Counted from the stretch's first letter, positions 26,697 to 61,620 are shown. The stretch is DNA of 64,000 nt from Candidatus Curtissbacteria bacterium (GCA_024654445.1 JANLHP010000017.1:33009-97008); one strand, 5' to 3'. Numbers and translations are program-made. Notes: generated by a model not told the origin, from the sequence alone.

Positions 26697-28030
26697 ACCA
26701 CATATTATATACTCGAAAGATGAACAAAACTTTTCTCTACGTCTTGATTTTCTTAACCTTAGTTTCCTTTGTAATTCGTATCTACCGATTTACATCTCCA
26801 GGCAAATATTACTTCGACGAGGTGTACCACGTTGTAACAGCAAAGGCATATTCTCAAAATAACCCGGCTGCTTATGATCCGTTTGCACCACCACCCGAAC
26901 AAGGCACTGCTTACGATTGGCTTCATCCTCCTTTGGCTAAATTAATACAAGCCGGGTCTATTAAGGTTTTGGGTGATAATCCTGTGGGCTGGAGACTTCC
27001 AAGTGTAATTTTTGGGACAGCAATTATCCCGCTAACTTTTATCTTGGCCACCCTGCTTTTTGGGCCCCTGGTCGGACTTTTTGCAGCTGCTGTGATTTCG
27101 TTTGAAAATTTAACTTTTGTGATGTCGAGAATTACGATGAACGATGTTTTTGTGGTGGTCTTTATCTTGTTGTCTTTAATATTCGCTGCATTCTACGCAA
27201 AGGCAAGTAAGTCGATGCATATAATTTTAAGCAGCATATTTTTGGGACTGGCAATTTCTTCAAAGTGGTCGGGTGTTTACGCCATTCCTTTAGTTTTTGG
27301 ATATTTGTCTTACATTTCTTTCAAGAAAAGGCGGTGGGACACAAAACTTCTTTTAACGCTACTTTTGCCCCCTCTTATATATCTTTTAAGTTATGGACAG
27401 TTCTGGTTGCAAGGGCATTCGGTCCGCCAGTTTATCGATCTTCATAAGCAAATCTTGTGGTATCAGAACCGCCACGATTTAGTTCATTCTTATGGTACTA
27501 CCCCAATTTACTGCGTACCGGAAGGTCTTGGTGGTCAGAAGAGTTTATGCCCTTGGGTTTTTGATGCCCGCGGGGTTTATTTCTCTTACCATGAACAAGG
27601 CGGAAAAGCCGAATACATCTATGCGCTCGGAAATCCCTTAATTTTTTGGGCCGGGTTCGTTGCTTCTTTCTTTTTAATCGGAAGGTTGGTTGAAAAGAGG
27701 GATAAGCAAAGCTTTTCTGTGAATAAGCAAAGCTTTGCTTCGAAAAAAAAGCTCGCCCTTGTACTTGCTGCTTACTTTATTTTTTGGGTGCCCTGGATAT
27801 TTAGCCCAAGAATAATGTTTTTGTATCACTACCTTCCAGCAATTCCATTTCTTTCAATCGCTCTTGGGATAGTTCTTTCTGATATTTATAAAACACGTCG
27901 AAGTTATATTGCCGTATTTGCGTTAGTTGCATTTGCTTTGGTTTTCTTCTATCTATACCCAATTTCCTCAGGATATCCAATCGAGATCAAATCGATTGGT
28001 AGGTATATGTGGTTTGATAGCTGGCGATAG
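26666..28030 (+). CDS. Glycosyltransferase family 39 (PMT-like, phospholipid-carrier-dependent)
   Basis: N-terminal YFDEVYHVVTAKAY...DPF...HPPLAKL loop motif typical of GT39; 454 aa polytopic; TAG stop. Confidence 0.6.
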   Translation: MLGKSESIFAYHILYTRKMNKTFLYVLIFLTLVSFVIRIYRFTSPGKYYFDEVYHVVTAKAYSQNNPAAYDPFAPPPEQGTAYDWLHPPLAKLIQAGSIKVLGDNPVGWRLPSVIFGTAIIPLTFILATLLFGPLVGLFAAAVISFENLTFVMSRITMNDVFVVVFILLSLIFAAFYAKASKSMHIILSSIFLGLAISSKWSGVYAIPLVFGYLSYISFKKRRWDTKLLLTLLLPPLIYLLSYGQFWLQGHSVRQFIDLHKQILWYQNRHDLVHSYGTTPIYCVPEGLGGQKSLCPWVFDARGVYFSYHEQGGKAEYIYALGNPLIFWAGFVASFFLIGRLVEKRDKQSFSVNKQSFASKKKLALVLAAYFIFWVPWIFSPRIMFLYHYLPAIPFLSIALGIVLSDIYKTRRSYIAVFALVAFALVFFYLYPISSGYPIEIKSIGRYMWFDSWR

Positions 28031-28033
28031 ATA

Positions 28034-28129
28034 TTTAAGGAGACAACCTACGGTTTTCTCCTTAATATTCCTCTTTCCCTAAGAGGACAATTTTGAACTA
28101 GCAAAAGCTAGATTCAAAATTAATTTTAG
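28034..28129. repeat. Intergenic structured repeat family R1, copy 1 (between convergent gene ends)
   Basis: tttaaggagacaacctacggttttctccttaatattcctctttccctaagaggacaattttgaactagcaaaagctagattcaaaattaattttag; 6 copies in window. Confidence 0.85.
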
Positions 28130-28133
28130 GTGC

Positions 28134-29333
28134 TTAGTGAATAGCAGAACGAGGATTTGCGTTTTGGTTTATTAGAGAATCGAGAATTTGGAATCTTCGA
28201 TCTTTTTCCTTGTGGGTTATGTTGTCTTCGAATGCTTTTGTGGCTGCTGTATTGGGTCTAAGTGAATATTTGTTAACGTAAGCATAGGTAAAACCAACTT
28301 CCTTGGCGAGCTTTACTGTGTTTTCGAATTGTTCTTTGGTTTCACCCGGAAAACCGACAATTATGTCTGTTGAAATTTGAGCGTCTTTGACTTTGTTTTT
28401 TATTTTTTGGGTCAGCTTAATGTACTGATCTCTTGTGTACCATCTGTTCATTCGTTTTAGAACTGAGTCGTCTCCGGACTGAACTGCAAGATGGATGTTT
28501 CTGTCTACTTTGGGATTCTTCGCGATAGTTTCTATAAGCTCATCCGAAAAATCCCAGGGATTAGAAGAAATAAACTTCACTTTTTCGATTCCGCGAGTTT
28601 TGCAAACTTCTTCCAATAGATAAGGAAAAAGGGTAGGTATTCTGTATCGTCCCAAATGTTTTACCATCACTGGTTTTACCTTTTTACCATTTGGAAGCAA
28701 ATAACCTTTTTGAGCGTTTTTGACTAAATCTGTTCCATAGGAGTTAACGTTTTGACCTAAAAGCGTTACTTGGCGACAGCCGAGTTTTGCTAGTTCATCT
28801 ATTTCACCAAGAATGTCTGCAAATGGTCTAGAGACTTCTCTCCCCCTTGTGAAAGGGACTACGCAGAATGTGCAGAAATTGTTACAACCATTAGAAATTG
28901 GTACCCAGGAATGTTCGACCGTATGTCTCAGCGCCGGGTAATCAAAGCCGACTTCTTCGAGCGGTAAAAATTCGTCGACTTCGGGCATACGATTTCTTAA
29001 GGCTTTTAAATACTTTCCAGTTTCGTCTCTCGCTGCCATTCCAACCATACACCCAGTAATGACGATTTTGGGTTTTTCTTTTCTATTTGCTGTTATATTT
29101 TTGACCAAGCCCGTTACTCTATCTTCTGCGCTTTGACGGATCATGCAGGTATTAATGACAACAGCGCTTGCGGTTTTCATTGATTTTGCAACCTTGTACC
29201 CTCGCGCTACGTAGTAGCTGGAAATCCTTTCGCTGTCAGCTATATTTTGCTGGCAACCAAACGTCTTAATATAAAAAGTAGAATCTTTCATCGCTTGAAA
29301 TTTTAGCACAGAATTAGATGATTTTGGGAGCAA
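28134..29333 (-). CDS. miaB: MiaB-family radical-SAM methylthiotransferase (tRNA 2-methylthio-N6-isopentenyladenosine synthase-like)
   Basis: MTTase N-domain FGCQQN, radical SAM Cys triad NGCNNFCTFC, TRAM-like C-terminus; true start probably M15 (MKDSTFYIKTFGCQ). Confidence 0.7.
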   Translation of the reverse strand: MLPKSSNSVLKFQAMKDSTFYIKTFGCQQNIADSERISSYYVARGYKVAKSMKTASAVVINTCMIRQSAEDRVTGLVKNITANRKEKPKIVITGCMVGMAARDETGKYLKALRNRMPEVDEFLPLEEVGFDYPALRHTVEHSWVPISNGCNNFCTFCVVPFTRGREVSRPFADILGEIDELAKLGCRQVTLLGQNVNSYGTDLVKNAQKGYLLPNGKKVKPVMVKHLGRYRIPTLFPYLLEEVCKTRGIEKVKFISSNPWDFSDELIETIAKNPKVDRNIHLAVQSGDDSVLKRMNRWYTRDQYIKLTQKIKNKVKDAQISTDIIVGFPGETKEQFENTVKLAKEVGFTYAYVNKYSLRPNTAATKAFEDNITHKEKDRRFQILDSLINQNANPRSAIH

Positions 29334-37552: not shown

Positions 37553-37573
37553 CTAATTCACCTCCTTTTTTTA

Positions 37574-37680
37574 ATTTAAGGGACAACCTACGGCCTGCCT
37601 GTCGGCAGACAGGTTTTCCCTTAATATTCCTTTTCCTTTAATGGACAAAATTAAACTGGCTAAGCCAGATTTAATTTTAG
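37574..37680. repeat. R1 repeat, copy 2 (with extra internal hairpin ctgtcggcagacag)
   Basis: tttaagggacaacctacggcctgcctgtcggcagacaggttttcccttaatattccttttcctttaatggacaaaattaaactggctaagccagatttaattttag. Confidence 0.85.
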
Positions 37681-37706
37681 ATTTTATGATAGCTCTTTCC
37701 ATAATT

Positions 37707-39115: not shown

Positions 39116-39229
39116 TTATCCTTGTCTTTGCTTATGACGAGGGTTAACACAAATTACGTAAAGGACCCCTCGTCTTTTGACGATTTTACAATTTACACAT
39201 CTTTTTCTAACGCTTGCTTGAACTTTCAT
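39116..39229 (-). CDS. rpmJ: 50S ribosomal protein L36 (37 aa; absent from the ORF track)
   Basis: Manual translation [37 protein letters not shown]; Zn-ribbon C..C..C..H; TAA stop one nt before rpsM ATG. Confidence 0.9.
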
Positions 39230-39234
39230 ACACT

Positions 39235-39328
39235 TTAAAGGGACACCTACGGTTTCCCTTTAATATTTCCTTTCTCTTTTAGTGGACGATTTTGTACTGG
39301 CAAAGCCAGATCCAAAATTAATTTTATA
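39235..39328. repeat. R1 repeat, copy 3 (between infA and rpmJ)
   Basis: tttaaagggacacctacggtttccctttaatatttcctttctcttttagtggacgattttgtactggcaaagccagatccaaaattaatttta. Confidence 0.8.
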
Positions 39329-40892: not shown

Positions 40893-42181
40893 TATTTGCG
40901 CCTCCTCAAAAATGAATCATAATCTCTCATTACAAGTTGTGATCCTACCTGCTTGGTTGTTTCCAAAACTACCGAAACGACTATTAAAAGACCTGTACCC
41001 CCAACCATAAGCGTTGAAATCCCCGTTAGTCTTTGACCGATTGACGGAAGAATTGCGATAAGTCCTAAAAATAAAGCGCCAAAAAGCGTGATCCGAAGCG
41101 AGACATAATCCAAAAATGCTTTTGTTGGTTTTCCGGGACGAATTCCGGGGAGAAATCCTCCTTGTTTCATTAACATTTCGGAAATTTGTTTTGTGTTAAA
41201 AGCGACTGTGGTGTAGAAATACGTGAAAGCAACCACAAGTACAAAATATGTGACGTTATAGGCGATGCCTACAGGATTGAATGCTCTTTGAATGGTTTGT
41301 GCTAAATTTGCGACAAAAACGTTCGGTGATGATTGAAGAAAATTTGCAAATGTAGTTGGTAAGAGAATCAATGATACTGCGAAAATTATTGGTATAACAC
41401 CTGCTTGATTTACTCTTAGTGGTATGTAACTTGAAACGACACTAGTTGCCGCATTTGCTGCCCTTCTTGAGTAATTTACAGGAATTGGCCTTCGTGCTTC
41501 CGTAACTATAACTATGGAGACGATGACCAAAAGAGCCATTGCTAAAAAGATTAGGATATTTCTGATTTGACTCGGGTCGAAAACGGACGCGGTCTGAAAT
41601 AAAGTTACGGGTAACCTTGCTACTATTCCTGCGAAAATTATCATTGATATTCCGTTGCCTATGCCCTTTTCTGTAATCAGTTCTCCTAACCACATCAACA
41701 GAATCGTGCCGGCGGCCATCGTCGCGACGAGTGAAAGAAGGCTTAAGGGTGTAATCGTAGAGATGATTTGAGAGTTTCTCAAAAGAATATACATACCAAA
41801 TGACTGCATTACAGCAAGGGGAACAGTGAGGTACCTTGTGTACTGGTTAATTTTCTCTCTACCCGATTCTCCTTCCTTTGCCATCTCGTCTAGTTTTGGA
41901 ATTACCAATTGCAAAAGCTGCATGATAATGCTGGCGTTAATGTAAGGATTTAGGCCGAGGGACATAACAGAAAAATTAGCTAAGGTTCCGCCGGAAAAAA
42001 TGTCGAGAAGAGAGAGTAGCTGACTTTGAGCAAAAATGTTTTTGATTGATGCTAAGTCGACACCTGGAACAGGGACGAAGGCGAAAATTCTAAACACGAG
42101 AAATATAAATGCTGTGAAAAGTATTTTCTTTCTTAATTCTTTTACTCTGAATATTTTCCTGATTAGTTCTAAATATTTCAT
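40892..42181 (-). CDS. secY: Preprotein translocase subunit SecY
   Basis: 10 TM, conserved SecY blocks; 429 aa. Confidence 0.95.
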   Translation of the reverse strand: MKYLELIRKIFRVKELRKKILFTAFIFLVFRIFAFVPVPGVDLASIKNIFAQSQLLSLLDIFSGGTLANFSVMSLGLNPYINASIIMQLLQLVIPKLDEMAKEGESGREKINQYTRYLTVPLAVMQSFGMYILLRNSQIISTITPLSLLSLVATMAAGTILLMWLGELITEKGIGNGISMIIFAGIVARLPVTLFQTASVFDPSQIRNILIFLAMALLVIVSIVIVTEARRPIPVNYSRRAANAATSVVSSYIPLRVNQAGVIPIIFAVSLILLPTTFANFLQSSPNVFVANLAQTIQRAFNPVGIAYNVTYFVLVVAFTYFYTTVAFNTKQISEMLMKQGGFLPGIRPGKPTKAFLDYVSLRITLFGALFLGLIAILPSIGQRLTGISTLMVGGTGLLIVVSVVLETTKQVGSQLVMRDYDSFLRRRK

Positions 42182-42702
42182 TTGCTAGGTATTTCTTTTT
42201 TAGGTGAAGGTTTAACTGGTTTTTTGGTTGTTGTTTTTTCTGTCTTTTGGACATCACCAGGTAGGATTTTACCTCCTGCTTGGGTGATTTTTTCTGCTGC
42301 GCTTTTTGATGTCGGGAGAGCAATGTTAAGAGAATTTGTTAGAATTCCTTCGCCTAAAATTTTGACTCCATAGACTTTTGCATCTGCCTTATCAACGATT
42401 CTTAATTCTATTAGGGTCTCTAGATTAACTGCTGATCCTTTGGGAATGCTACTTAAGTCGCGCAGGTTTACAACTAGAGGTTTTTTAGATATCTTTTTAT
42501 TCCCTTTGCCTCTTCTATAGGGGAGCCTTTTGAAAAGAGGCCTTTGACCACCTTCAAAATGAGGATGTCCAATTGATAGTTTTCCTCTTGCATTTTGACC
42601 TTTTTGCCCCCTGCCGCTGGTTTTCCCTTTCCCTGATCCCGGCCCTCGGCCAATCCTTTTCGGGGAGTTCTTTTTTAGTTTTGGTAATTTATCAAGTTTC
42701 AT
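42178..42702 (-). CDS. rplO: 50S ribosomal protein L15 with Lys/Pro-rich C-terminal tail
   Basis: GRGPGSGKGKTSGRGQKGQ; directly follows rpsE with no L30 gene between. Confidence 0.9.
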   Translation of the reverse strand: MKLDKLPKLKKNSPKRIGRGPGSGKGKTSGRGQKGQNARGKLSIGHPHFEGGQRPLFKRLPYRRGKGNKKISKKPLVVNLRDLSSIPKGSAVNLETLIELRIVDKADAKVYGVKILGEGILTNSLNIALPTSKSAAEKITQAGGKILPGDVQKTEKTTTKKPVKPSPKKEIPSK

Positions 42703-43154
42703 CTTTCAAGACTTTTAAGCGCTTCCAAAGTTGCGTAAACGTTGGAAGCTTGATTTTTAGTTCCAAGAACTTTACTTGAAATATTCCTAATTCCAGCTGC
42801 TTCTACTACGCTTCTTACTGCGCCGCCTGCAATTACACCCGAACCTTCGGGAGCGGGTTTAAGGATGATTTTTGCGGCTCCTCTTTTAATATAAACATCG
42901 TGAGGAATCGTTCCGTTTACCAAAGGCACCTCTATTAAATGCTTTTTGGCGTAAGCGATTCCTTTTCTTATTCCAGAAGATACGTCTTTTGCTTTTCCAA
43001 GACCCACACCTACTCTGCCTTTTTTATCGCCTATTACCATCAAAACGGAAAAGCCTATTTTGTTTCCGCCCTGAGTTTTTTTGGATACCCTGTTGACTTG
43101 AATGACTTTTTCGTCGAATTCTTTAGGTTGGTCTTGATAATATGGATTTGCCAT
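42699..43154 (-). CDS. rpsE: 30S ribosomal protein S5
   Basis: dsRBD plus S5 C-domain. Confidence 0.95.
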   Translation of the reverse strand: MANPYYQDQPKEFDEKVIQVNRVSKKTQGGNKIGFSVLMVIGDKKGRVGVGLGKAKDVSSGIRKGIAYAKKHLIEVPLVNGTIPHDVYIKRGAAKIILKPAPEGSGVIAGGAVRSVVEAAGIRNISSKVLGTKNQASNVYATLEALKSLER

Positions 43155-43507: not shown

Positions 43508-44050
43508 TTATTGCGCAGTTTTGACTGCTTTGCCTGCCTTTCTTCTTACAATCTCACCGGCGTATTTGATACCTTTCCCTTTGTAAGGCTCAGGCGGTCT
43601 TACTCTTCTGATTTTAGCGGCTACTTCACCGACCAGAACTTTATCGGCGCCGCTTATTATTATTTTGTTTTCTTTGGCTTCGATATTTATACCTTTGATT
43701 TGTTCAAAGGTCACGGGATGCGAATATCCAATATTCAATACCAGACTCTCGCCTTGTTTTGCTGCGCGGTAACCAACACCAACGAGTTCCAAAACTTTTT
43801 CGTGCCCATCTGTTACACCCTTTACCATATTTGCAATAACGCTTCTGGTTAACCCGTGAAGAGATTTAGCAAATTTTGTTTCTGAAAGGCGATTTACGTC
43901 TACTTTCCCGTCATTCACATCGACTTTTATTTCTGGACGAATTTGGAATGACAATTCACCCTTTGGGCCCACTACGTTAATTTGAGAATCCATCACGGAA
44001 ACCGTAACGCCTTGTGGGATCGGTACTGGTTGTTTTCCTATCTTTGACAT
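43508..44050 (-). CDS. rplF: 50S ribosomal protein L6
   Basis: MSKIGKQPVPIPQGVTV. Confidence 0.95.
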   Translation of the reverse strand: MSKIGKQPVPIPQGVTVSVMDSQINVVGPKGELSFQIRPEIKVDVNDGKVDVNRLSETKFAKSLHGLTRSVIANMVKGVTDGHEKVLELVGVGYRAAKQGESLVLNIGYSHPVTFEQIKGINIEAKENKIIISGADKVLVGEVAAKIRRVRPPEPYKGKGIKYAGEIVRRKAGKAVKTAQ

Positions 44051-44110
44051 AATATGCTCCTTTCAGTCGCAAGAATCTCAAAGTTCAAAGTGCAAAGTTC
44101 AAAATTGAGG
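44051..44110. promoter_or_regulatory. Conserved leader motif R3 upstream of rplF (minus-strand sense TTTGAACTTTGCACTTTGAACTTTGAG...TGCGACTGAAAGGAGCA-ATG)
   Basis: Same 45-60 nt motif with SD GAAAGGAG recurs at 44547..44607 and 46880..46945. Confidence 0.6.
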
Positions 44111-44170
44111 AAGCCAAAAGATTTTTGGCTTTTTATTTTGATATTTGATATTTGATATTTGATATTTTTG
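44111..44170. repeat. Hairpin (gccaaaagatttttggc) followed by microsatellite (TTTGATA)x4-5
   Basis: gccaaaagatttttggctttttattttgatatttgatatttgatatttgatattttt. Confidence 0.8.
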
Positions 44171-44171
44171 G

Positions 44172-44546
44172 TTACCATACAATACATATCACTTCTCCCC
44201 CTAATTTTTTAGACCTTGCATCGCTTCCCGTCATAACACCTTGAGGTGTAGAAACAATTGTTATGCCTCTTCCGCCTTTTATAGACTTAATATCTTTGCT
44301 TTTTGTGTAAACTCTAAGACCTAATTTAGAGACTTTTTTGACTTCTTTTAACTTTGGTTTATTGTTTTCGTATAAGAGACCTACTTCGAGTTTAGTGTCT
44401 GTTTTTTGAACGCTAGCGATAAATTTACTTTTTTCTAAAACTTTAGCAATCTCAAATTTGAATTTTGAATGCGGCATAGAAACGGTTTGTTTCCGGGCCA
44501 TATAACCATTTTTTATCGCAACTAACATGTCTGCTATTGGATCCAC
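44172..44546 (-). CDS. rpsH: 30S ribosomal protein S8
   Basis: MDPIADMLVAIKNG. Confidence 0.95.
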   Translation of the reverse strand: MDPIADMLVAIKNGYMARKQTVSMPHSKFKFEIAKVLEKSKFIASVQKTDTKLEVGLLYENNKPKLKEVKKVSKLGLRVYTKSKDIKSIKGGRGITIVSTPQGVMTGSDARSKKLGGEVICIVW

Positions 44547-44607
44547 TGTTTTGCTCCTTTCTGTCGCAAAAATTTTAAATTTAAAATTTCAAATTTAAAG
44601 TTAATTA
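44547..44607. promoter_or_regulatory. R3 leader motif upstream of rpsH
   Basis: minus-sense ...TTTAAATTTGAAATTTTAAATTTAAAATTTTTGCGACAGAAAGGAGCAAAACA-ATG. Confidence 0.55.
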
Positions 44608-44793
44608 TTACCATGATGATTTTTTCACTCCTGGCACTTCTCCTTTATGAACAAGTTCCCTGAAACAAAGCCTGCACATACCAAATTTTCTTAGATAAGC
44701 CCTTGGCCTGCCGCATAGACGGCAACGGTTTCTGTGCCTTACTTCAAATTTCTGCTTTTTATCGTTTTTAATAACTTTAGATTTTCTTGCCAT
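44608..44793 (-). CDS. rpsN: 30S ribosomal protein S14 type Z (Zn-binding)
   Basis: [23 protein letters not shown]; 61 aa. Confidence 0.95.
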
Positions 44794-44795
44794 TT

Positions 44796-45338
44796 TTAAA
44801 CTTTTCTAAATGGAACTCCAATTTGTTCCAATAATTTTTTGGATTTCTCTGGATCACTATTTTTGATAACGATTGTGACAACTAAACCTCTAACTTTGTC
44901 TACTTTCGAATAATCAACTTCCGAAAATAGAACTTGTTCCGCAATACCGAGACTGTAATTGCCCGCACGGTCAAATTTATCTGTCGTAAGCCCGCGGAAA
45001 TCTCTCATTTTTGGTAGAACTATAATTGTTAATTTTTCTAAAAAGTTCCATGCCTTCTTGCCTCTTAGGGTAACTGCAAGTCCTATTTCGTCTCCTTGTC
45101 TCAGAGAGAATCCCGAGATAGCTTTTTTTGCTTTCGTAACCCTTGGTTTTTGTCCAGAAATAGCTGCCAGTTGTTCCGCTGCTTTTGCCATTACTTCTTT
45201 GTTCCCTGCAGCTTCTGCTAGCCCCATATTCAAAACGACTTTTTCGATACGGGGAACCGAGAGGTTGTTCGTAAGTTTTAATTCCTCTTTTAACTTTGGT
45301 AACACTTGTTCGTTGTATATTGCCTGCAGTGATGCCAT
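44796..45338 (-). CDS. rplE: 50S ribosomal protein L5
   Basis: L5 core. Confidence 0.95.
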
Positions 45339-45339
45339 T

Positions 45340-45645
45340 TTATATTTCTCCTTTACACTTCTTGCATATCCTTTTTTTAGTTTTACCTTCTATTTGAAAC
45401 CCAACCCTTGTCGGTTTACCGCATTTAGGGCAAATAAGAGCTGCTTTAGATATAACAATTGGTCTTGTTATTTCATATATACCGGCCTTTTGAGTTGCGG
45501 TCGCTTTTTTATGCCTTTTATAAACGTTTACTCCAGCGACCACTATTTTGCTTTCTTTGGCCAAAACTTTTTCGACTTTGCCTTTTTTACCTTTGTCTTT
45601 GCCTACGTTTATTAAGACTTCATCACCGGCTTTAATTTTTAACAT
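45340..45645 (-). CDS. rplX: 50S ribosomal protein L24 (start taken as MLKIKAGDEV)
   Basis: KOW motif KIKAGDEVLINVGKDKGKKGKV. Confidence 0.9.
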   Translation of the reverse strand: MLKIKAGDEVLINVGKDKGKKGKVEKVLAKESKIVVAGVNVYKRHKKATATQKAGIYEITRPIVISKAALICPKCGKPTRVGFQIEGKTKKRICKKCKGEI

Positions 45646-45646
45646 T

Positions 45647-46015
45647 TTAAACGACCTCCTTGGCGAGTGACGCAATTTTAGCGAAACCTTTTTCTTTTAC
45701 TTCCTGCGCGATGGGTCCGAATATTCTGGTTCCCCTAGGTGCTTTTGTTTGGTCTATTATCACGGCAGCGTTTTCGGAAAACCTGACGTATGAGCCGTCT
45801 CTTCTTCTCGTTTCTTTTCTTGTTCTGACAATTACAGCCTTAACCTTTTCGTGATCTTTAACTTGTCCTGTTGGACTTGCTCCGTGGACAACACACGTCG
45901 CAATTTCTCCAAGCCTGAGAAACCTTTTCCCTGTGCCCTTACCCATACCAATTACATAGAGACCTTTTGCGCCACTATTGTCTGCAACAATTAGTTTTGA
46001 TCTTTTAATGAGCAT
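45647..46015 (-). CDS. rplN: 50S ribosomal protein L14
   Basis: MLIKRSKLIVADNSGAK. Confidence 0.95.
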   Translation of the reverse strand: MLIKRSKLIVADNSGAKGLYVIGMGKGTGKRFLRLGEIATCVVHGASPTGQVKDHEKVKAVIVRTRKETRRRDGSYVRFSENAAVIIDQTKAPRGTRIFGPIAQEVKEKGFAKIASLAKEVV

Positions 46016-46246
46016 TTAAGATACAACCTCCAAAACTTTAAAATGGACATCTTTTGAAAAAGGTTTTGATTCTATGATTTTGACGGTTTGACCAACCTTA
46101 ACTTCTAGATCGTTATGCGCTTTAAATTTTTTGGTTCTTGTAATTTGCTTTTTGTACAGAGGATGCTTTATCTTGCTTGCTACATTAACAACGACTGTGT
46201 TTTGCATTTTGACAGAAACCACTGTACCTTGTTTAACTTGTGGCAT
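46016..46246 (-). CDS. rpsQ: 30S ribosomal protein S17
   Basis: S17 OB fold; 76 aa. Confidence 0.95.
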   Translation of the reverse strand: MPQVKQGTVVSVKMQNTVVVNVASKIKHPLYKKQITRTKKFKAHNDLEVKVGQTVKIIESKPFSKDVHFKVLEVVS

Positions 46247-46469
46247 TTTTGTCCTCCTTCGCTACTTTGTCTGCACTTATTTTTGCCGAAAGTATAGTCT
46301 TAGCTATTGCTATTTCTTTTCTCTTTGAATTTGCCATGTGTACGTTTTTAACTTTTCCCATTCTTGTTTCTAGCTGAGTGTTAGCAACTTCTTTTCTAAA
46401 ATCTTGAATTGTTTTTTTAAGATCATCTACTGTTTTATTTTTTAAACTATCAAATTCGTTTTTTTTCAT
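46233..46469 (-). CDS. rpmC: 50S ribosomal protein L29
   Basis: Position between rplP and rpsQ, helical 78-aa protein. Confidence 0.85.
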   Translation of the reverse strand: MKKNEFDSLKNKTVDDLKKTIQDFRKEVANTQLETRMGKVKNVHMANSKRKEIAIAKTILSAKISADKVAKEDKNATS

Positions 46470-46471
46470 CT

Positions 46472-46879
46472 TTATCCTTTTGTTACTATTTTTGTCTTAA
46501 GTGGTAACTTATGAGCTGCAAGTCTCATTGCCTCCATGGCAACTTTTTCCTCTACTGCTCCCATTTCAAAAATGATTACTCCAGGTCTTACAACTGCAAC
46601 GTATTGGTCAACGTCACCTTTACCAGAACCCATACGGGTTTCTGCTGGCTTTTTGGTAACAGGTTTGTCTGGAAAAATCCTAATCCAAATACGCCCACCT
46701 CTTTTGGTATAGTGAGTCATTGCGCGCCTTGCCGCTTCAATTTGCCTGGCAGTCACCCAACCCGCCGCCTGACTTTTGAGTCCATATGAACCAAAGGCGA
46801 GGACGCTGCCTCTTATCGAGACGCCACCCATTTTCCCTCTAAATTGTTTCCTAAATTTTGCTCTTTTTGGCGCTAACAT
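46472..46879 (-). CDS. rplP: 50S ribosomal protein L16
   Basis: [17 protein letters not shown]. Confidence 0.95.
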
Positions 46880-46945
46880 GGTTTGCTCCTTTCAGTCGCA
46901 GAAAGTTTAAAGTTCAAAGTGCAAAGTTCAAAGTTAAGGAGGTTA
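46880..46945. promoter_or_regulatory. R3 leader motif upstream of rplP; followed (46990..47030) by tttgatttttgacttttgatttttgatg short tandem repeats
   Basis: minus-sense TTTGAACTTTGCACTTTGAACTTTAAACTTTCTGCGACTGAAAGGAGCAAACC-ATG. Confidence 0.6.
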
Positions 46946-47033
46946 ACTTCGTTAACTTTTAATTTTATTGTTCGAGCGAAGTCGAGAACTTCCATAAATT
47001 TGATTTTTGACTTTTGATTTTTGATGTTGTTAT

Positions 47034-48054: not shown

Positions 48055-48075
48055 TTGTAACCTCCGGTTACTTAC

Positions 48076-48118
48076 TAATTTGAACTAATTTTGCTAATTT
48101 ATACGAATATTTGTTCAT
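48076..48118. promoter_or_regulatory. Conserved leader motif R4 upstream of rplV (TAATTTGAACTAATTTTGCTAATTTATACGAATATTTGTTCAT; SD ACCGGAGGTT)
   Basis: Near-identical 43-nt element at 56953..56996 upstream of rpsG. Confidence 0.6.
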
Positions 48119-48153: not shown

Positions 48154-48438
48154 TCATTTTTTTGCTGATGATTTTTCTGTCATTTTGCCGTGTCCTCTAA
48201 AAGTTCTGGTTGGCGCGAATTCACCGAGCCTGTGACCTACCATTGGTTCGGAAACGAAAACATTAATGAATGTTCTGCCGTTATGAACGGAGAACGTATG
48301 ATTTACAAATTCGGGCGCAATCTGGCTAGCCCTAGCCCAAGTTTTAATAGGTGCTTTTTGTGCAGCCTGTTTTTGGGCCATAACTTTCTTCATTAATTTT
48401 TCGTCAACGTATGGACCTTTCTTACTCGATCTACTCAT
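48154..48438 (-). CDS. rpsS: 30S ribosomal protein S19
   Basis: [15 protein letters not shown]; TGA stop. Confidence 0.95.
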
Positions 48439-48443
48439 TTTGA

Positions 48444-48539
48444 CTTTAAGGGCAAACCTAACGGTTTTCCCTTAATATTCCCTTTCCCTTTATTGGACAA
48501 ATTTGGACTGGCAAACCCAGATCCAAATTTTAATTTTAG
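48444..48539. repeat. R1 repeat, copy 4 (between rplB and rpsS)
   Basis: ctttaagggcaaacctaacggttttcccttaatattccctttccctttattggacaaatttggactggcaaacccagatccaaattttaattttag. Confidence 0.85.
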
Positions 48540-51259: not shown

Positions 51260-51532
51260 TTAAGTTTCCCAAAAAGTACTAAAAAAGCAGGACTCCTTGA
51301 AATTAATCACATTCCTGTGAGTTTCAGGTGCCCCACCAATTAACGTCTCTCGTTAATCGATTATTATTTAATTGTTTTTTCGCCTCTCGATGTACTCATT
51401 ACATCTTTAGCTCAATATCAACTCCAGCCGGGAGTTCCAAATGAGTCAAGGAATCAACTGTTTTTAGAGAGTGAAACACTATCAAACAACGACTTTGATA
51501 GTAGTGAAACTCTCGCAAGACAGTTGACGAAC

Positions 51533-55717: not shown

Positions 55718-55993
55718 TTACTTGGAAAGCTTTTCTTTGGTGGAGTTAGCTTGACCGATTCCAATTGGAGGACGTTCTATCTTTCTTATTTCTGCTTTAA
55801 TTTCGGCAACCATGGCCCGAAGCACAGAAACTTCTTCGTCCGCGAGTTCCCAGGCGGCGTTTTCGTTCCAAGCAGCACCAGAATCTTGATAAGCTTCTCC
55901 ATAACGAGTCAGAGCATCTTTGAGTTTGACCTCCTCGAGCTCTTTTAGCTTTGTCCTAAGTTGTTTTAACTTCTGTCCTTTTGATAATGCCAT
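55718..55993 (-). CDS. Hypothetical small coiled-coil protein inserted between rpsG and fusA (start taken at MALSKGQKLK; track ORF extends into R1 repeat)
   Basis: 91 aa, Lys/Glu heptad-like N-half, acidic Trp-containing middle (AAWNENAAWELADEE); no recognisable family. Confidence 0.45.
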   Translation of the reverse strand: MALSKGQKLKQLRTKLKELEEVKLKDALTRYGEAYQDSGAAWNENAAWELADEEVSVLRAMVAEIKAEIRKIERPPIGIGQANSTKEKLSK

Positions 55994-56001
55994 GTTTCTG
56001 A

Positions 56002-56134
56002 TTTTAAGGGACAACCTAATAAGCAAAGCTTGCGGTCCTCGTCCTTCGGACTGCGGGCCTAACGGTTTTCCCTTAATATTCCCTTTCCCTTAATGGAGAA
56101 ATTTAAACTAGCAAAGCTAGATTTAAATTTCGAT
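56002..56134. repeat. R1 repeat, copy 5 (with extra internal UUCG-tetraloop hairpin gtccttcggac)
   Basis: ttttaagggacaacctaataagcaaagcttgcggtcctcgtccttcggactgcgggcctaacggttttcccttaatattccctttcccttaatggagaaatttaaactagcaaagctagatttaaattt. Confidence 0.85.
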
Positions 56135-56145
56135 TGTATTGCACT

Positions 56146-56349: not shown

Positions 56350-56437
56350 TTTGTTAATTTACCATCTGAAATGGGAAAAAGCTTTTAGATAGTTACTACG
56401 GACCGAAAGGTCCGGAACTATCGCAAGGCGGAACACA

Positions 56438-56932: not shown

Positions 56933-56952
56933 AGAAACCTCCGGTTTCTTGC

Positions 56953-56996
56953 AAATTTGAACTAATTTTGACTAATTTAATCGAATATTCGTTCAT
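56953..56996. promoter_or_regulatory. R4 leader motif upstream of rpsG
   Basis: aatttgaactaattttgactaatttaatcgaatattcgttcat; SD ccggaggtt. Confidence 0.6.
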
Positions 56997-57505: not shown

Positions 57506-57579
57506 AATTTATCTCAATTTCAAAATTTAAAGTTTAAAAGTCAAAATTACAACTCAAAACTTAAAAGTTGCGTTGGGAG

Positions 57580-60800: not shown

Positions 60801-61518
60801 GAGGTTTGACAGAGTTGACCATACTGGTAATGCTCTTGTAGATTTCCTCGAGTCTGGAAACTTCCTTGGCGTTTTCGTCCCGGAGCATTGCCTGTCTTTG
60901 GCGCGTGATCAGCTGCATTTCTTCGATTTTAAGTTCTGATTGTTCTTTTGCTGTCGATTTACCTTTGACTTCCGCGACCTCTTTTTTGCCTTCTTTTTCC
61001 TGCTCTTCTAAGTTTTTCTTTAAAAGTACTTGTTGTTCTTTTCTCTTTGCTTCCAGATCCTGTTCTAAGCGTTTTATGATTTCTGCTCTTTTATCTTCGT
61101 CGAGGTCGATGACGATGTATGACGCGAAATAAATTACAGCGTCTAAGCTCCTTGGGGAAACATCAAGAAGAAGCCCGAGCTTCGACGGGCTGCCTTTGAA
61201 AAACCAGTTGTGAACAACCGGAGCAGCAAGTGTAATGTGGCCCATTCTTTCACGACGGACTCTAGATTGGGTTACTTCAACGCCACATTTGTCACAAATT
61301 ATTCCGCGGTACCTGATCCTTTTGTATTTACCGCAGTAACACTCCCAGTCTTTTGTGGGGCCGAAAATGCGTTCGTCGAAAAGTCCGTCTTTTTCCGGCT
61401 TCAGCGTTCTGTAGTTAATGGTTTCAGGTTTTGTGACCTCACCAAAAGACCACGTCTTGATGTCGTCTGCTGACGCGAGTGTTAATTTTAAGGCTTCAAA
61501 ATCGATTAGTTCGTTCAT
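57826..61518 (-). CDS. rpoC: DNA-directed RNA polymerase subunit beta'
   Basis: Zn-binding CxxC..CxxC N-terminus, NADFDGD catalytic motif; 1230 aa. Confidence 0.99.
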   Translation of the reverse strand: MNELIDFEALKLTLASADDIKTWSFGEVTKPETINYRTLKPEKDGLFDERIFGPTKDWECYCGKYKRIRYRGIICDKCGVEVTQSRVRRERMGHITLAAPVVHNWFFKGSPSKLGLLLDVSPRSLDAVIYFASYIVIDLDEDKRAEIIKRLEQDLEAKRKEQQVLLKKNLEEQEKEGKKEVAEVKGKSTAKEQSELKIEEMQLITRQRQAMLRDENAKEVSRLEEIYKSITSMVNSVKPLDLISEDEYQKIADYEAHEFLKVGMGAESVLAVLEKIDLAQLAANLRKELTTASSQKYIKAAKRLRVVEGMRKAQISPTWMIIKTLPVLPPDLRPMVQLSGGRFATSDLNDLYRRVINRNNRLKKLIELGAPEIILRNEKRMLQEAVDALIDSQKVKTTRASQELRSLSDMLRGKQGRFRQNLLGKRVDYSGRSVIVVGPELDLHQTGIPKEMALEMFKPFVLREIISRGHAPNVKSAKHFLERRSGEIWDILEEITKNHPVLLNRAPTLHRLGIQAFYPILIEGDAIRIHPCICAGFNADFDGDQMAVHVPLSEASQAEAISLMVASKNLLRPADGSPITLPNKEMALGVYYLTSIDEGKEPYEGIFRDEEEVVIGVATGRVGIRQRIKIKLGKEIIDTTAGRVIFNIQLPESLRFINEPITAAAIKGIINKSIDTLPEEEVLGIIDRLKSLGFEGATFSGLSVSVFDCQIVGDKPNIIAKAEKEVEAIEKNFKMGLITKEEERRLSQEVWLTTTNELADLTWRNLPGTNAIKIISDSGGSRATAEQIKQLSAIRGLVTDPSGQIVPLPVKSNFREGLSVFEYFTSARGARKGLADRAIKTAESGYLTRRLVDVAHDAIIRLEDCGTTEGIEFSKRDKRQAPLASRIHGRYAAKDVLSSKGKNAIVKAGEEITEEKVAEIEKAGIEEVLVRSVLTCQAKHGLCALCYGRDLVTRELVKIGTPVGVIAAQSIGEPGTQLTMRTFHTGGIVGLDITQGLPRVEELFEARVPKFVAQLAEIAGKVKVEENEEGYAVTIKSTRIKPAQEKEYFIPSAVDLLVADGDLIAAGTPLSSGYLDIKEVLAISGLRAAQKYIIAGAQQVYESQGVAINDKHFEAIVRKMSEKVRIETSGDTTLLPGELVDKNRFEGENGKVLAEGGEPATAQVVILGITRAALYTESFLSAASFQETTRILTDAASEGKYDPLLGLKENVIIGRLIPTSPDRAKISTES

Positions 61519-61524
61519 TTTTGA

Positions 61525-61620
61525 CTTTAAGGAGACAACCTACGATTTTCTCCTTAATATTCCTCTTTCCCTAAAAAGATAATTTTAAACTGGCAAATCT
61601 AGATTTAAAATTCATTTTAG
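61525..61620. repeat. R1 repeat, copy 6 (between rpoB and rpoC)
   Basis: tttaaggagacaacctacgattttctccttaatattcctctttccctaaaaagataattttaaactggcaaatctagatttaaaattcattttag. Confidence 0.85.

Follow-up and report, generated by a model that had tools for sequence, protein, structure and literature searches.

We report here a repeated leader element at the starts of ribosomal protein genes in a DNA stretch of 64,000 nucleotides from Candidatus Curtissbacteria bacterium (GCA_024654445.1, JANLHP010000017.1:33009–97008), in the following called the window, which was also the part of the source genome that the analysis covered. The element is found in three internal spacers of the large ribosomal protein operon, namely rpsC–rplP (spacer A), rpsN–rpsH (spacer B), and rpsH–rplF (spacer C), and its copies are named accordingly. 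Each of these spacers ends with about four tandem repeat units of 7 nt (heptads), a 17-nt box of the sequence TGCGAC(T/A)GAAAGGAGCA, a gap of 4–5 nt, and the start codon. Based on the sequence comparisons described below we suggest, with moderate confidence, that each copy is a cis-acting, start-associated, and portable leader which would be transcribed within the polycistronic mRNA and would give the respective cistron its own strong ribosome entry.

The initial annotation of the window had pointed out that the three spacers are abnormally long for this operon (154, 61, and 121 nt) and that they carry a repeated, oriented leader. Both observations could be substantiated. A repeat search joined the three copies into one 65-nt family with identities of 85% and 63%, and the box is present in all three spacers: the sequence TGCGACTGAAAGGAGCA occurs exactly in copies A and C and with one mismatch (T to A) in copy B. 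By chance 0.11 box matches are expected, and no shuffled sequence gave three. A 24-mer, TTTGAACTTTGCACTTTGAACTTT, is shared exactly by copies C (44080–44103) and A (46909–46932) and had no match in 100 shuffles of the window. Further copies of the 24-mer or of the box were found nowhere else in the 64 kb, neither in coding nor in non-coding DNA. All five period-7 tandem arrays that were detected in the window lie inside the spacers A, B, and C; among them are the simple repeats noticed before, a perfect (TTTGATA)n run at 44137–44167 and a run at 46999–47028 which is 87% periodic. The element in the window is non-random and oriented in gene sense.

Some details of the annotation had to be corrected. 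A TTTGAA stretch followed by TGCGAC had been described for each spacer; the box holds for all three, but copy B lacks the unit TTTGCAC and its AT-rich heptads are degenerate (TTTAAAT TTGAAAT TTTAAAT TTAAAAT). Likewise, the Shine–Dalgarno (SD) sequence in front of the genes is indeed strong, but rpsH starts with GTG instead of ATG, and GGAG and the start codon are 6–7 nt apart. The reported similarity to the region upstream of rpsL was located at 57522–57557 but is weak (72%).

The spacers A and C have the same layout, with an A-rich heptad run just after the stop codon of the upstream gene and a U-rich heptad run just before the box, and in gene sense the A-rich heptads are complementary to the U-rich ones. 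In the predicted RNA folds of both spacers these runs pair into a long hairpin which is broken every heptad and capped by a local hairpin, the imperfect duplex being longer than 20 bp. For spacer B a hairpin of 11 A–U pairs is predicted. The z-scores of the folds are −3.26 for spacer C, which was folded as a whole, −1.86 for spacer A, and −2.52 for spacer B. In all three copies the box stays outside of these pairings and is predicted to form a small hairpin of its own. This hairpin has a 3-bp stem UGC/GCA and an 11-nt loop GACUGAAAGGA which holds most of an 8-nt extended SD sequence, GAAAGGAG; the latter is expected to match the 3′ tail of 16S rRNA (the window contains neither a 16S gene nor any other rRNA gene). 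The hairpin at 44111–44131, which caps copy C, was assessed by the criteria for intrinsic terminators and has three G–C pairs and an interrupted tail CCUCAAUUUU; no terminator-like hairpins were flagged in the spacers A and B. Two further resemblances were discarded. A U-turn of the YUNR type in the loop (CUGA) is not a general feature as copy B has CAGA and variants have CCGA and UCGA, and the likeness of the antisense of the box to boxA (TGCTCTTTAACAA) is on the wrong strand.

The covariation of the small hairpin was examined in viral contigs. These were scanned for CGACTGAAAGGAG followed after 4–9 nt by ATG only, leaving the stem free, which yielded 95 unique instances with an open reading frame (ORF). 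The autocorrelation upstream of these instances peaks at lag 7 (0.40 vs 0.24–0.29 at other lags). Of the 25 heptad-bearing instances, 15 have complementary bases at the two free positions of the stem; among the 62 heptad-free instances this holds for 5, which is about the chance level (Fisher p = 9e-7, an optimistic value as some viral instances are mutually related, with at least ten of the contexts being independent). Five pair types are found at these positions (AA/TT, TT/AA, GG/CC, AG/CT, and AC/GT). Over the instances compared, the stem has the form NNC...GNN with the covarying versions UGC/GCA, UUC/GAA, ACC/GGU, CUC/GAG, AAC/GUU, and GGC/GCC. The bases of the box outside of the SD sequence are identical across phyla. 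Hence, the box consists of a stem of 3 bp, which covaries, and of a loop of 11 nt in which the extended SD sequence is presented.

The same design is present far beyond the window. The exact box was found in at least 120 metagenome stretches and in 14 viral stretches, and 28 unique exact-box instances combine a start codon and an ORF with a clear periodicity at lag 7 over the 30 nt before the box. Among the 15 strongly periodic instances there are 12 for which no lag scores better than 7, the start codon follows 2–6 nt after the box in all of the 12 most strongly periodic ones, and the box always stands in gene sense. In half of the class (14/28) an upstream arm is complementary to the 3′ heptad run at z < −2. 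The 3′ run is poor in G (G 0.11, C 0.29, A 0.25, T 0.35). The heptad units differ by site and by genome yet are homogeneous within an array, and the strong SD box follows. Contigs carrying the box together with locus-specific heptads and a start codon range from 39 to 67% G+C and were assigned to Firmicutes, Acidobacteriota, Burkholderiales, and phages; host assignments from 90% protein clusters point to Defluviitaleaceae (at the rplF–rplR junction), Pyrinomonadaceae, and Burkholderiales. The genes downstream of box and heptads include rpsC, rplR, rpmA, rpmI, ssb, and the genes of an acyl-CoA dehydrogenase, a CoA transferase, and a DUF4242 protein, and in phages those of the tail sheath, major tail, and major head proteins. 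The design is associated with genes of abundant proteins. For cultured phages a GenBank search with the box and its flanks retrieved partial matches of the SD type but never the complete box. The near-identical phage contigs L216 and L220 differ at two positions, which are not compensatory.

Within the Curtissbacteria the element is not fixed in its position. The annotation had named conservation of the motif in related genomes as a check. The closest relatives (L081/L082, L085, and L087) have tight junctions of only 1–25 nt at all three places, and most species representatives have 5–20 nt at rpsN–rpsH and rpsH–rplF. The spacers of the window are therefore lineage-specific gains, and the module is found elsewhere in the group. 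About four tandem heptads and a box variant precede rpsC in L001, L003, L005, and L115, rplP in L003 and L115, and rpsH in L003. The heptad units differ from module to module (AACTACA, CTTGTCA, CTTTTCA, GAAATTA), and the box stem appears as UUC/GAA, ACC/GGU, CUC/GAG, and CGC/GCG. The AT-rich arm of copy B is identical in 35 of 36 nt to the orthologous spacer of L003. The box itself has diverged, and divergence is visibly higher in the coding DNA on either side; over all 227 columns the alignment is 86% identical. In other relatives the rpsC–rplP junction holds a different module, the leader family F2 described below, which implies that junctions exchange leader modules over time. The module has been gained, lost, and re-sited among Curtissbacteria and is portable; it may have spread by duplication, conversion, or horizontal transfer.

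How such a leader would work can be sketched from its parts. The first part would be the run of tandem heptads, about four in number and, in the mRNA, rich in U and poor in G; this run can, in copies A and C, pair with the A-rich run after the upstream stop codon, which would give the long interrupted hairpin, and copy B would pair with itself. Directly 3′ of it, the 17-nt box with its 3-bp stem and 11-nt loop would display the 8-nt extended SD sequence, and the start codon 4–5 nt beyond the box would be the third part. The G-poor run would supply unstructured or protein-bound RNA beside the loop-displayed SD sequence. In this manner rplP, rpsH, and rplF would initiate independently, and an insulated entry site would replace translational coupling. 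The overlapping or near-abutting genes in the relatives fit translational coupling there, and the association with abundant-protein genes fits a role in high expression. The element most likely acts at the start of the downstream cistron. We infer that the leader may raise or insulate translation, and the heptads could be read by a single-strand-binding protein with an oligonucleotide-binding (OB) fold, S1-like or similar to cold shock proteins (Csp), or by the 30S subunit. Candidate readers of heptamers discussed in the literature are S1, CsrA, and the Csp proteins, of which one would bind each heptamer (PMC4679880).

Several points weigh against this proposal. The 3-bp stem of the box alone is thermodynamically marginal, and the relatedness of some viral instances makes the statistics of its covariation look better than they are. 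When the large hairpins were folded on both strands to tell an RNA from a DNA role, the sense strand gave the more stable fold in 12 of the 28 instances; this lack of bias does not decide between the two. The arms may act in RNA but might also act in single-stranded DNA or be of purely mutational origin. Sigma-70-like hexamers are present in copies A and B. Finally, neither the unit length of 7 nt nor the differences of the units from site to site are explained by the leader model.

Going one step further, the arms and the CGACUGAAAGGAG hairpin box might constitute a single undescribed class of elements, read by a universal component (the 30S subunit or an S1- or Csp-like OB-fold protein with one heptad per domain), which would be a horizontally mobile high-expression cassette common to the candidate phyla radiation (CPR), Firmicutes, Acidobacteriota, Proteobacteria, and phages. 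We regard this generalization as possible but rather doubtful. If true, it would also explain the start-proximal heptamers of cyanobacteria and Beggiatoaceae and the mycobacteriophage sequences to be discussed now.

The closest known system are the start-associated sequences (SAS) of the Cluster K mycobacteriophages, a 13-nt asymmetric motif (GGGATAGGAGCCC, with up to two mismatches) with an SD core and symmetric flanks located 3–7 nt before start codons (PMC3203893). SAS and their extended form (ESAS) occur in one orientation and in long intergenic gaps, and about half of them have imperfect inverted repeats just upstream (PMC3203893); their function was unverified as of a survey of 188 genomes in 2025 (PMC12699233). 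The element described here likewise has a conserved motif with an SD core in one orientation a few nucleotides before starts (the box ends 4–5 nt before them in the window and 2–6 nt in the 12 instances mentioned above), with conserved flanks which are symmetric to each other (GGG...CCC in SAS, NNC...GNN in the box) and for which no pairing with 16S rRNA is possible. Unusually long intergenic gaps and downstream genes of different families are further common traits, and the upstream inverted-repeat pair of ESAS has its counterpart in the spacers A and C and in 14 of the 28 class members. On the other hand, GGGATAGGAGCCC and TGCGACTGAAAGGAGCA are different sequences in different hosts, and the box element is therefore an analogue and not a member of the SAS. 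Moreover, SAS are known from a single phage cluster and only for non-structural genes, whereas the box element is shared by phages, where its copies precede structural genes, and by the cellular genomes of bacteria from several phyla. The arms of ESAS follow a fixed 17-bp consensus instead of locus-specific heptads, and RNA pairing of these arms was judged unlikely by the authors of that study.

The heptads also have precedents. Tandem TAACTGA heptamers were described upstream of start codons in Beggiatoaceae, Cyanobacteria, and Bacteroidetes, including ribosomal protein operons (MacGregor 2015, PMC4679880), and TTTTGAA/TTCAAAA heptamer repeats before starts in Nostoc PCC 7120 (bioRxiv 10.1101/2022.06.06.494920). 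As in all three spacers, these are two to six or more tandem 7-nt units in forward orientation directly upstream of a start codon; they show a similar patchy spread across phyla, they have been proposed to act post-transcriptionally, possibly through binding of S1, Csp, or CsrA, and the Nostoc unit TTTTGAA is nearly the TTTGAAC of the window. However, one fixed unit is used there genome-wide and usually replaces the SD sequence, and neither a box nor a hairpin partner was described, while here the unit varies by site, a conserved box with a strong SD sequence follows, and often a complementary upstream run is present. SAS-like boxes and start-proximal heptamers are known separately; here they are combined, and their range is extended to the CPR, to other phyla, and to structural genes of phages. 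A literature search, from whose coverage most subscription journals fell out, retrieved a description neither of the box sequence nor of the combination of box and heptads.

Four other explanations have to be weighed. The first is that the element serves RNA processing or stability, the heptad hairpin being a substrate of RNase III or a barrier for exonucleases that would split the mRNA into segments, and the box being the ribosome binding site at the new 5′ end. Intercistronic stem–loops that set the stability of mRNA segments are known from the REP/BIME elements and from the RNase III sites of phage T7, and the stabilizer STAB-SD (GAAAGGAGG) of Bacillus thuringiensis cry3A acts far from the start codon. 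These elements share with ours the hairpins between cistrons and, in case of STAB-SD, nearly the same sequence as the extended SD sequence GAAAGGAG; REP and T7 hairpins differ in that their sequences are specific to the family, lack a heptad periodicity, and are not joined to a conserved SD hairpin. More directly, the (ATCTTTC)n repeat of Haemophilus influenzae hmw1A forms a hairpin in the 5′ untranslated region which RNase III cleaves (Rapun-Araiz et al. 2025, PMC12721329). In both cases pyrimidine-rich transcribed heptads form one arm of a long hairpin, and for hmw1A a post-transcriptional effect on the downstream gene is established, as cleavage of this heptad hairpin increases expression (PMC12721329). 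The hmw1A repeat is, however, phase-variable, has at least ten units and a G-rich non-repetitive partner arm, lies in a monocistronic leader, and has no conserved box; RNase III cleavage was shown there, whereas the duplexes of the spacers A and C are predicted ones. A processing element would be in line with the interrupted duplexes of more than 20 bp predicted for the spacers A and C and for many class members, with the strictly intercistronic position beginning right after the upstream stop codon, and with phage structural operons having one such element per highly expressed gene. Nevertheless, copy B offers only an 11-bp A–U hairpin, about half of the class members have no significant upstream partner arm, and the folding has no bias for the sense strand. 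It is the box and not the duplex that is most conserved, and the covarying stem of the box would be left unexplained. We consider this explanation rather unlikely.

The second explanation would do without any regulatory role. The element could be neutral, selfish, or slippage-generated DNA with microsatellite-like heptads, possibly moved by an unknown mechanism and tolerated only for its good SD sequence. A mutational origin of the arrays by slippage is in fact likely: the units vary between sites and are homogeneous within an array as slippage predicts, and period 7 dominates tandem arrays in many lineages. The presence or absence of the element at orthologous junctions, the different modules at the same junction in relatives, and the missing strand bias in folding would fit as well. 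Yet neutrality sits badly with the arm of copy B, conserved at 35 of 36 nt between species whose flanking genes are clearly more diverged, and with a box whose non-SD bases are the same across phyla and whose stem covaries. Strict orientation and spacing relative to start codons, enrichment before abundant-protein genes, and the lack of terminal inverted repeats, target duplications, or an associated transposase speak against it, too. That the element as a whole is neutral is thus unlikely. A mobile repeat of the MITE or REP type was rejected because the window has its three copies inside a stretch of 3 kb and no copy in the remaining 61 kb, the arms differ between copies and genomes, and no target duplication is seen relative to the junctions of the relatives. 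Integron attC sites, REP/RAYT elements, and the ends of IS200 were set aside as no matching core site, fixed arm sequence, or associated gene is present.

Third, the annotation had suggested internal promoters, that is, sigma-70-type promoters in which the AT-rich heptads provide −35 or UP-like elements and transcription is re-initiated along the operon. Copy B contains TTTAAA-16-TAAAAT (9/12), which matches in the consensus scan, and copy A contains TTGAAC-16-TAAACT (8/12), whose TAAACT is also the −10 hexamer of the conserved tuf promoter of the clade; in addition, the terminator-like hairpin in spacer C lies upstream. But the region is not enriched in promoter-like sites (30 vs 27.2 in shuffles) and only copy B was flagged, copy C with TTGAAC-16-TGAGAT having a poor −10 hexamer. 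The modules of L001, L003, L005, and L115 have heptads without usable hexamers. In the wider class the consensus is matched in only 2 of 57 instances with heptads and box, the other 55 lacking such hexamers, and GC-rich members cannot contain one. Furthermore, the covarying stem begins 3 nt after the putative −10 hexamer, so that a transcript starting 6–8 nt downstream of it would lose the 5′ arm of the stem; the functional RNA would therefore have to begin further upstream. The conserved promoters of the clade also look different, with TGnTAcAAT at rpsJ, rpsL, and infA and TTGACA/TTGCAT-17/18-TAAACT/TATAAA at tuf. One or two copies may have incidental promoter activity; as an account of the element, promoters are quite improbable.

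The weakest candidate is a repeated autoregulatory operator for a ribosomal protein (S8 or an L protein) which mimics the rRNA site. In Escherichia coli the spc operon has a translational operator for S8 at the start of rplE, a single, ribosomal-protein-operon-specific site which mimics the rRNA site. Like it, the element is a small structure at the start of cistrons of the spc region, and its conserved hairpin overlaps the SD sequence. However, the multiplied S8-type operator envisaged in the annotation does not hold up, as the same box with the same architecture precedes the genes of SSB, acyl-CoA dehydrogenase, CoA transferase, the DUF4242 protein, and phage head, tail, and sheath proteins in other phyla and thus cannot be an autoregulatory site specific for ribosomal proteins. 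The element is multiplied, precedes unrelated genes, and is missing where the nearest relatives have these junctions, and Rfam gave no match to a ribosomal protein leader or to any other family for the spacers, neither at gathering thresholds nor at E up to 5, over 35–64 kb. An operator of this kind is highly improbable.

The positions of the features in the window are compiled in Table 1. The window has 40.7% G+C, and from ∼35 kb to 64 kb it is a single string of genes on the minus strand from rpoB to rpsI. RpsH is 58–69% identical to its nearest species representatives, which are Candidatus Curtissbacteria (Microgenomates, CPR), and in a homologue search the RplF of the window was identical to a protein of an NCBI Curtissbacteria metagenome-assembled genome, the RplF of the next relative being only 78% identical; exact look-ups of RpsH and RplF gave no record. 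The gene rpsE (42699–43154) is directly followed by rplO (42178–42702), the L30 gene rpmD not lying between them; this is a trait reported for CPR bacteria and fits the assignment to Curtissbacteria. Between rpsG and fusA lies an ORF of 102 amino acids and unknown function (55718–56026, minus strand), preceded by a 411-nt spacer with a copy of F2 and a promoter-like TAGCATATAAT.

F2 is a second repeated leader family of ∼95 nt with six copies on the minus strand of the window, found before rpoC, the ORF of unknown function, rpsS, rpmJ, and rpoA and once after the gene at 28134–29333. It consists of two hairpins flanking an invariant GGGAAAGGGAATATTAAGG, and compensatory changes are found in 12 of 23 predicted pairs when copies from L004, L005, L083, and L085 are included. 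In the second hairpin an SD-like arm AAGGAGA pairs with an anti-SD-like arm UCUCCUU, and in three copies the start codon follows without another SD sequence. In relatives F2 is located at other junctions, for example, at rpsC–rplP in L004, L005, and L083; it has no match in Rfam. A third leader family, F3, comprises an AT-rich part followed by an SD sequence enclosed in a small hairpin, with the start codon 2–4 nt further; its two hairpins differ by a compensatory change (GAAACC-GGA-GGUUUC vs GUAACC-GGA-GGUUAC).

Two further motifs were found between the genes of the window. The motif CCTTGCGA-[stem–loop]-TCTAAAAG is also present after rpsC in L001, L002, and L005, with variation in the outer CCUU/AAGG and in the inner stem; it has no match in Rfam at E up to 5 and looks like a small structured RNA or a processing site. 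The rpsJ–rplC spacer is unusually long (180–270 nt) across Curtissbacteria and contains the block GGTGGGRCACCTGAAA...AAGGAGTCCTGCTTTTTTAG, which ends in a hairpin and a T run and looks like an attenuator placed after rather than before rpsJ.

The 17-mer box also occurs without heptads or an adjacent start codon in three other conserved contexts, in metagenome contigs of low G+C content (31–40%), one example being ...GAGAGCCTGCAAGGCGTGG-box-AGTAGCGATGGCAC. These contexts look like structured RNAs or the ends of mobile elements, and no Rfam family matched these three classes. In ribosomal protein regions of many phyla (loci L008–L080) period 7 is by far the commonest tandem repeat among those of period 5 or longer, with 42 arrays of period 7, 15 of period 6, and one of period 8, and it is dominant among the periods 4–12. 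These arrays are often inverted pairs around a bare loop (L033 ATAGCGT/ACGCTAT, L014 AAAATAG/CTATTTT, L058 GATGGTC/GACCATC) and often abut start codons without any SD sequence. Near the start of contig L034 (195–230), which is labelled as a metagenome-assembled genome of an uncultured Saccharibacteria, lies a (CCCTAAA)n run, the telomere repeat of the plant type; this may be due to chimeric assembly or contamination.

Table 1. Features of the spacers A, B, and C, of other leaders and motifs, and of their surroundings
Feature	Position	Strand	Remark
Spacer A, rpsC–rplP	46880–47033	minus	154 nt
Copy A A-rich heptad run, 5′ arm, AACATCAAAAATCAAAAGTCAAAAATCAAA	46999–47028	minus	87% period-7 array; begins 5 nt after rpsC stop
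Copy A central segment, small local hairpins, ends CCTCCTT	46936–46998	minus	RNA fold
Copy A U-rich run, 3′ arm, TTTGAAC TTTGCAC TTTGAAC TTTAAAC TTTC	46901–46935	minus	
Copy A box TGCGACTGAAAGGAGCA, stem UGC/GCA, loop GACUGAAAGGA, extended SD GAAAGGAG	46884–46900	minus	exact match
rplP start ATG	46877–46879	minus	4 nt after box
Spacer B, rpsN–rpsH	44547–44607	minus	61 nt
Copy B AT-rich heptad run TTAACTTTAAATTTGAAATTTTAAATTTAAAATTTT	44569–44604	minus	period-7 array; self-folds to 11-bp A–U hairpin
Copy B box TGCGACAGAAAGGAGCA	44552–44568	minus	stem extendable to UUUUGC/GCAAAA
rpsH start GTG	44544–44546	minus	5 nt after box
Spacer C, rpsH–rplF	44051–44171	minus	121 nt
Copy C A-rich heptad run (ATATCAA)x4, 5′ arm	44137–44167	minus	perfect period-7 array; predicted pairing with 3′ arm
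Copy C capping hairpin AAGCCAAAA-AUC-UUUUGGCUU	44111–44131	minus	atop long predicted hairpin; terminator-like on both strands
Copy C U-rich run, 3′ arm, TTTGAAC TTTGCAC TTTGAAC TTTGAGA TTCT	44072–44103	minus	
Copy C box TGCGACTGAAAGGAGCA	44055–44071	minus	exact match
rplF start ATG	44048–44050	minus	4 nt after box
F2 copies	61516–61612, 56050–56139, 48436–48538, 39224–39327, 37571–37692, 28026–28128	minus	
F3 copies	48057–48116, 56933–56994	minus	rpsS–rplV and rpsL–rpsG, respectively
Motif CCTTGCGA-[stem–loop]-TCTAAAAG	56382–56428, 51461–51520	minus	after rpsG and after rpsJ, respectively; directly downstream of stop codons
Block GGTGGGRCACCTGAAA...AAGGAGTCCTGCTTTTTTAG	51279–51337	minus	rpsJ–rplC spacer; conserved across Curtissbacteria, including L081, L083, L087 at same junction
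Gene order, first part		minus	rpoB-rpoC-rpsL-rpsG-(ORF)-fusA-tuf-rpsJ...rplB-rpsS-rplV-rpsC-rplP-rpmC-rpsQ-rplN-rplX-rplE
Gene order, continued from rplE		minus	rpsN-rpsH-rplF-rplR-rpsE-rplO-secY-adk-map-infA-rpmJ-rpsM-rpsK-rpsD-rpoA-rplQ-rplM-rpsI
Heptad-free box context, class 1			L095, L106, L111, L123, L127, L136–L138, L163
Heptad-free box context, class 2			L092, L107, L125, L130, L131
Heptad-free box context, class 3			L093, L105, L126, L133, L154

Ribosomal protein operons are the textbook example of tight packing and translational coupling, and in the operon of this Curtissbacterium an imported leader would have taken the place of coupling at three junctions. The same 17-nt box, with its covarying stem and locus-specific heptads, precedes the genes of the most abundant proteins of phages (major head, major tail, and sheath), and in no fewer than four bacterial phyla it stands before genes of ribosomal and other proteins. 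Should the element generally serve high, autonomous translation or the stability of mRNA segments, synthetic operons would gain a compact part that does not depend on the host, and high expression could be recognized by it in the genomes of uncultured organisms; it would also be a handle on the start-proximal heptamer repeats and on SAS and ESAS. It also raises a mechanistic question which is directly testable, namely what reads the 7-nt register.

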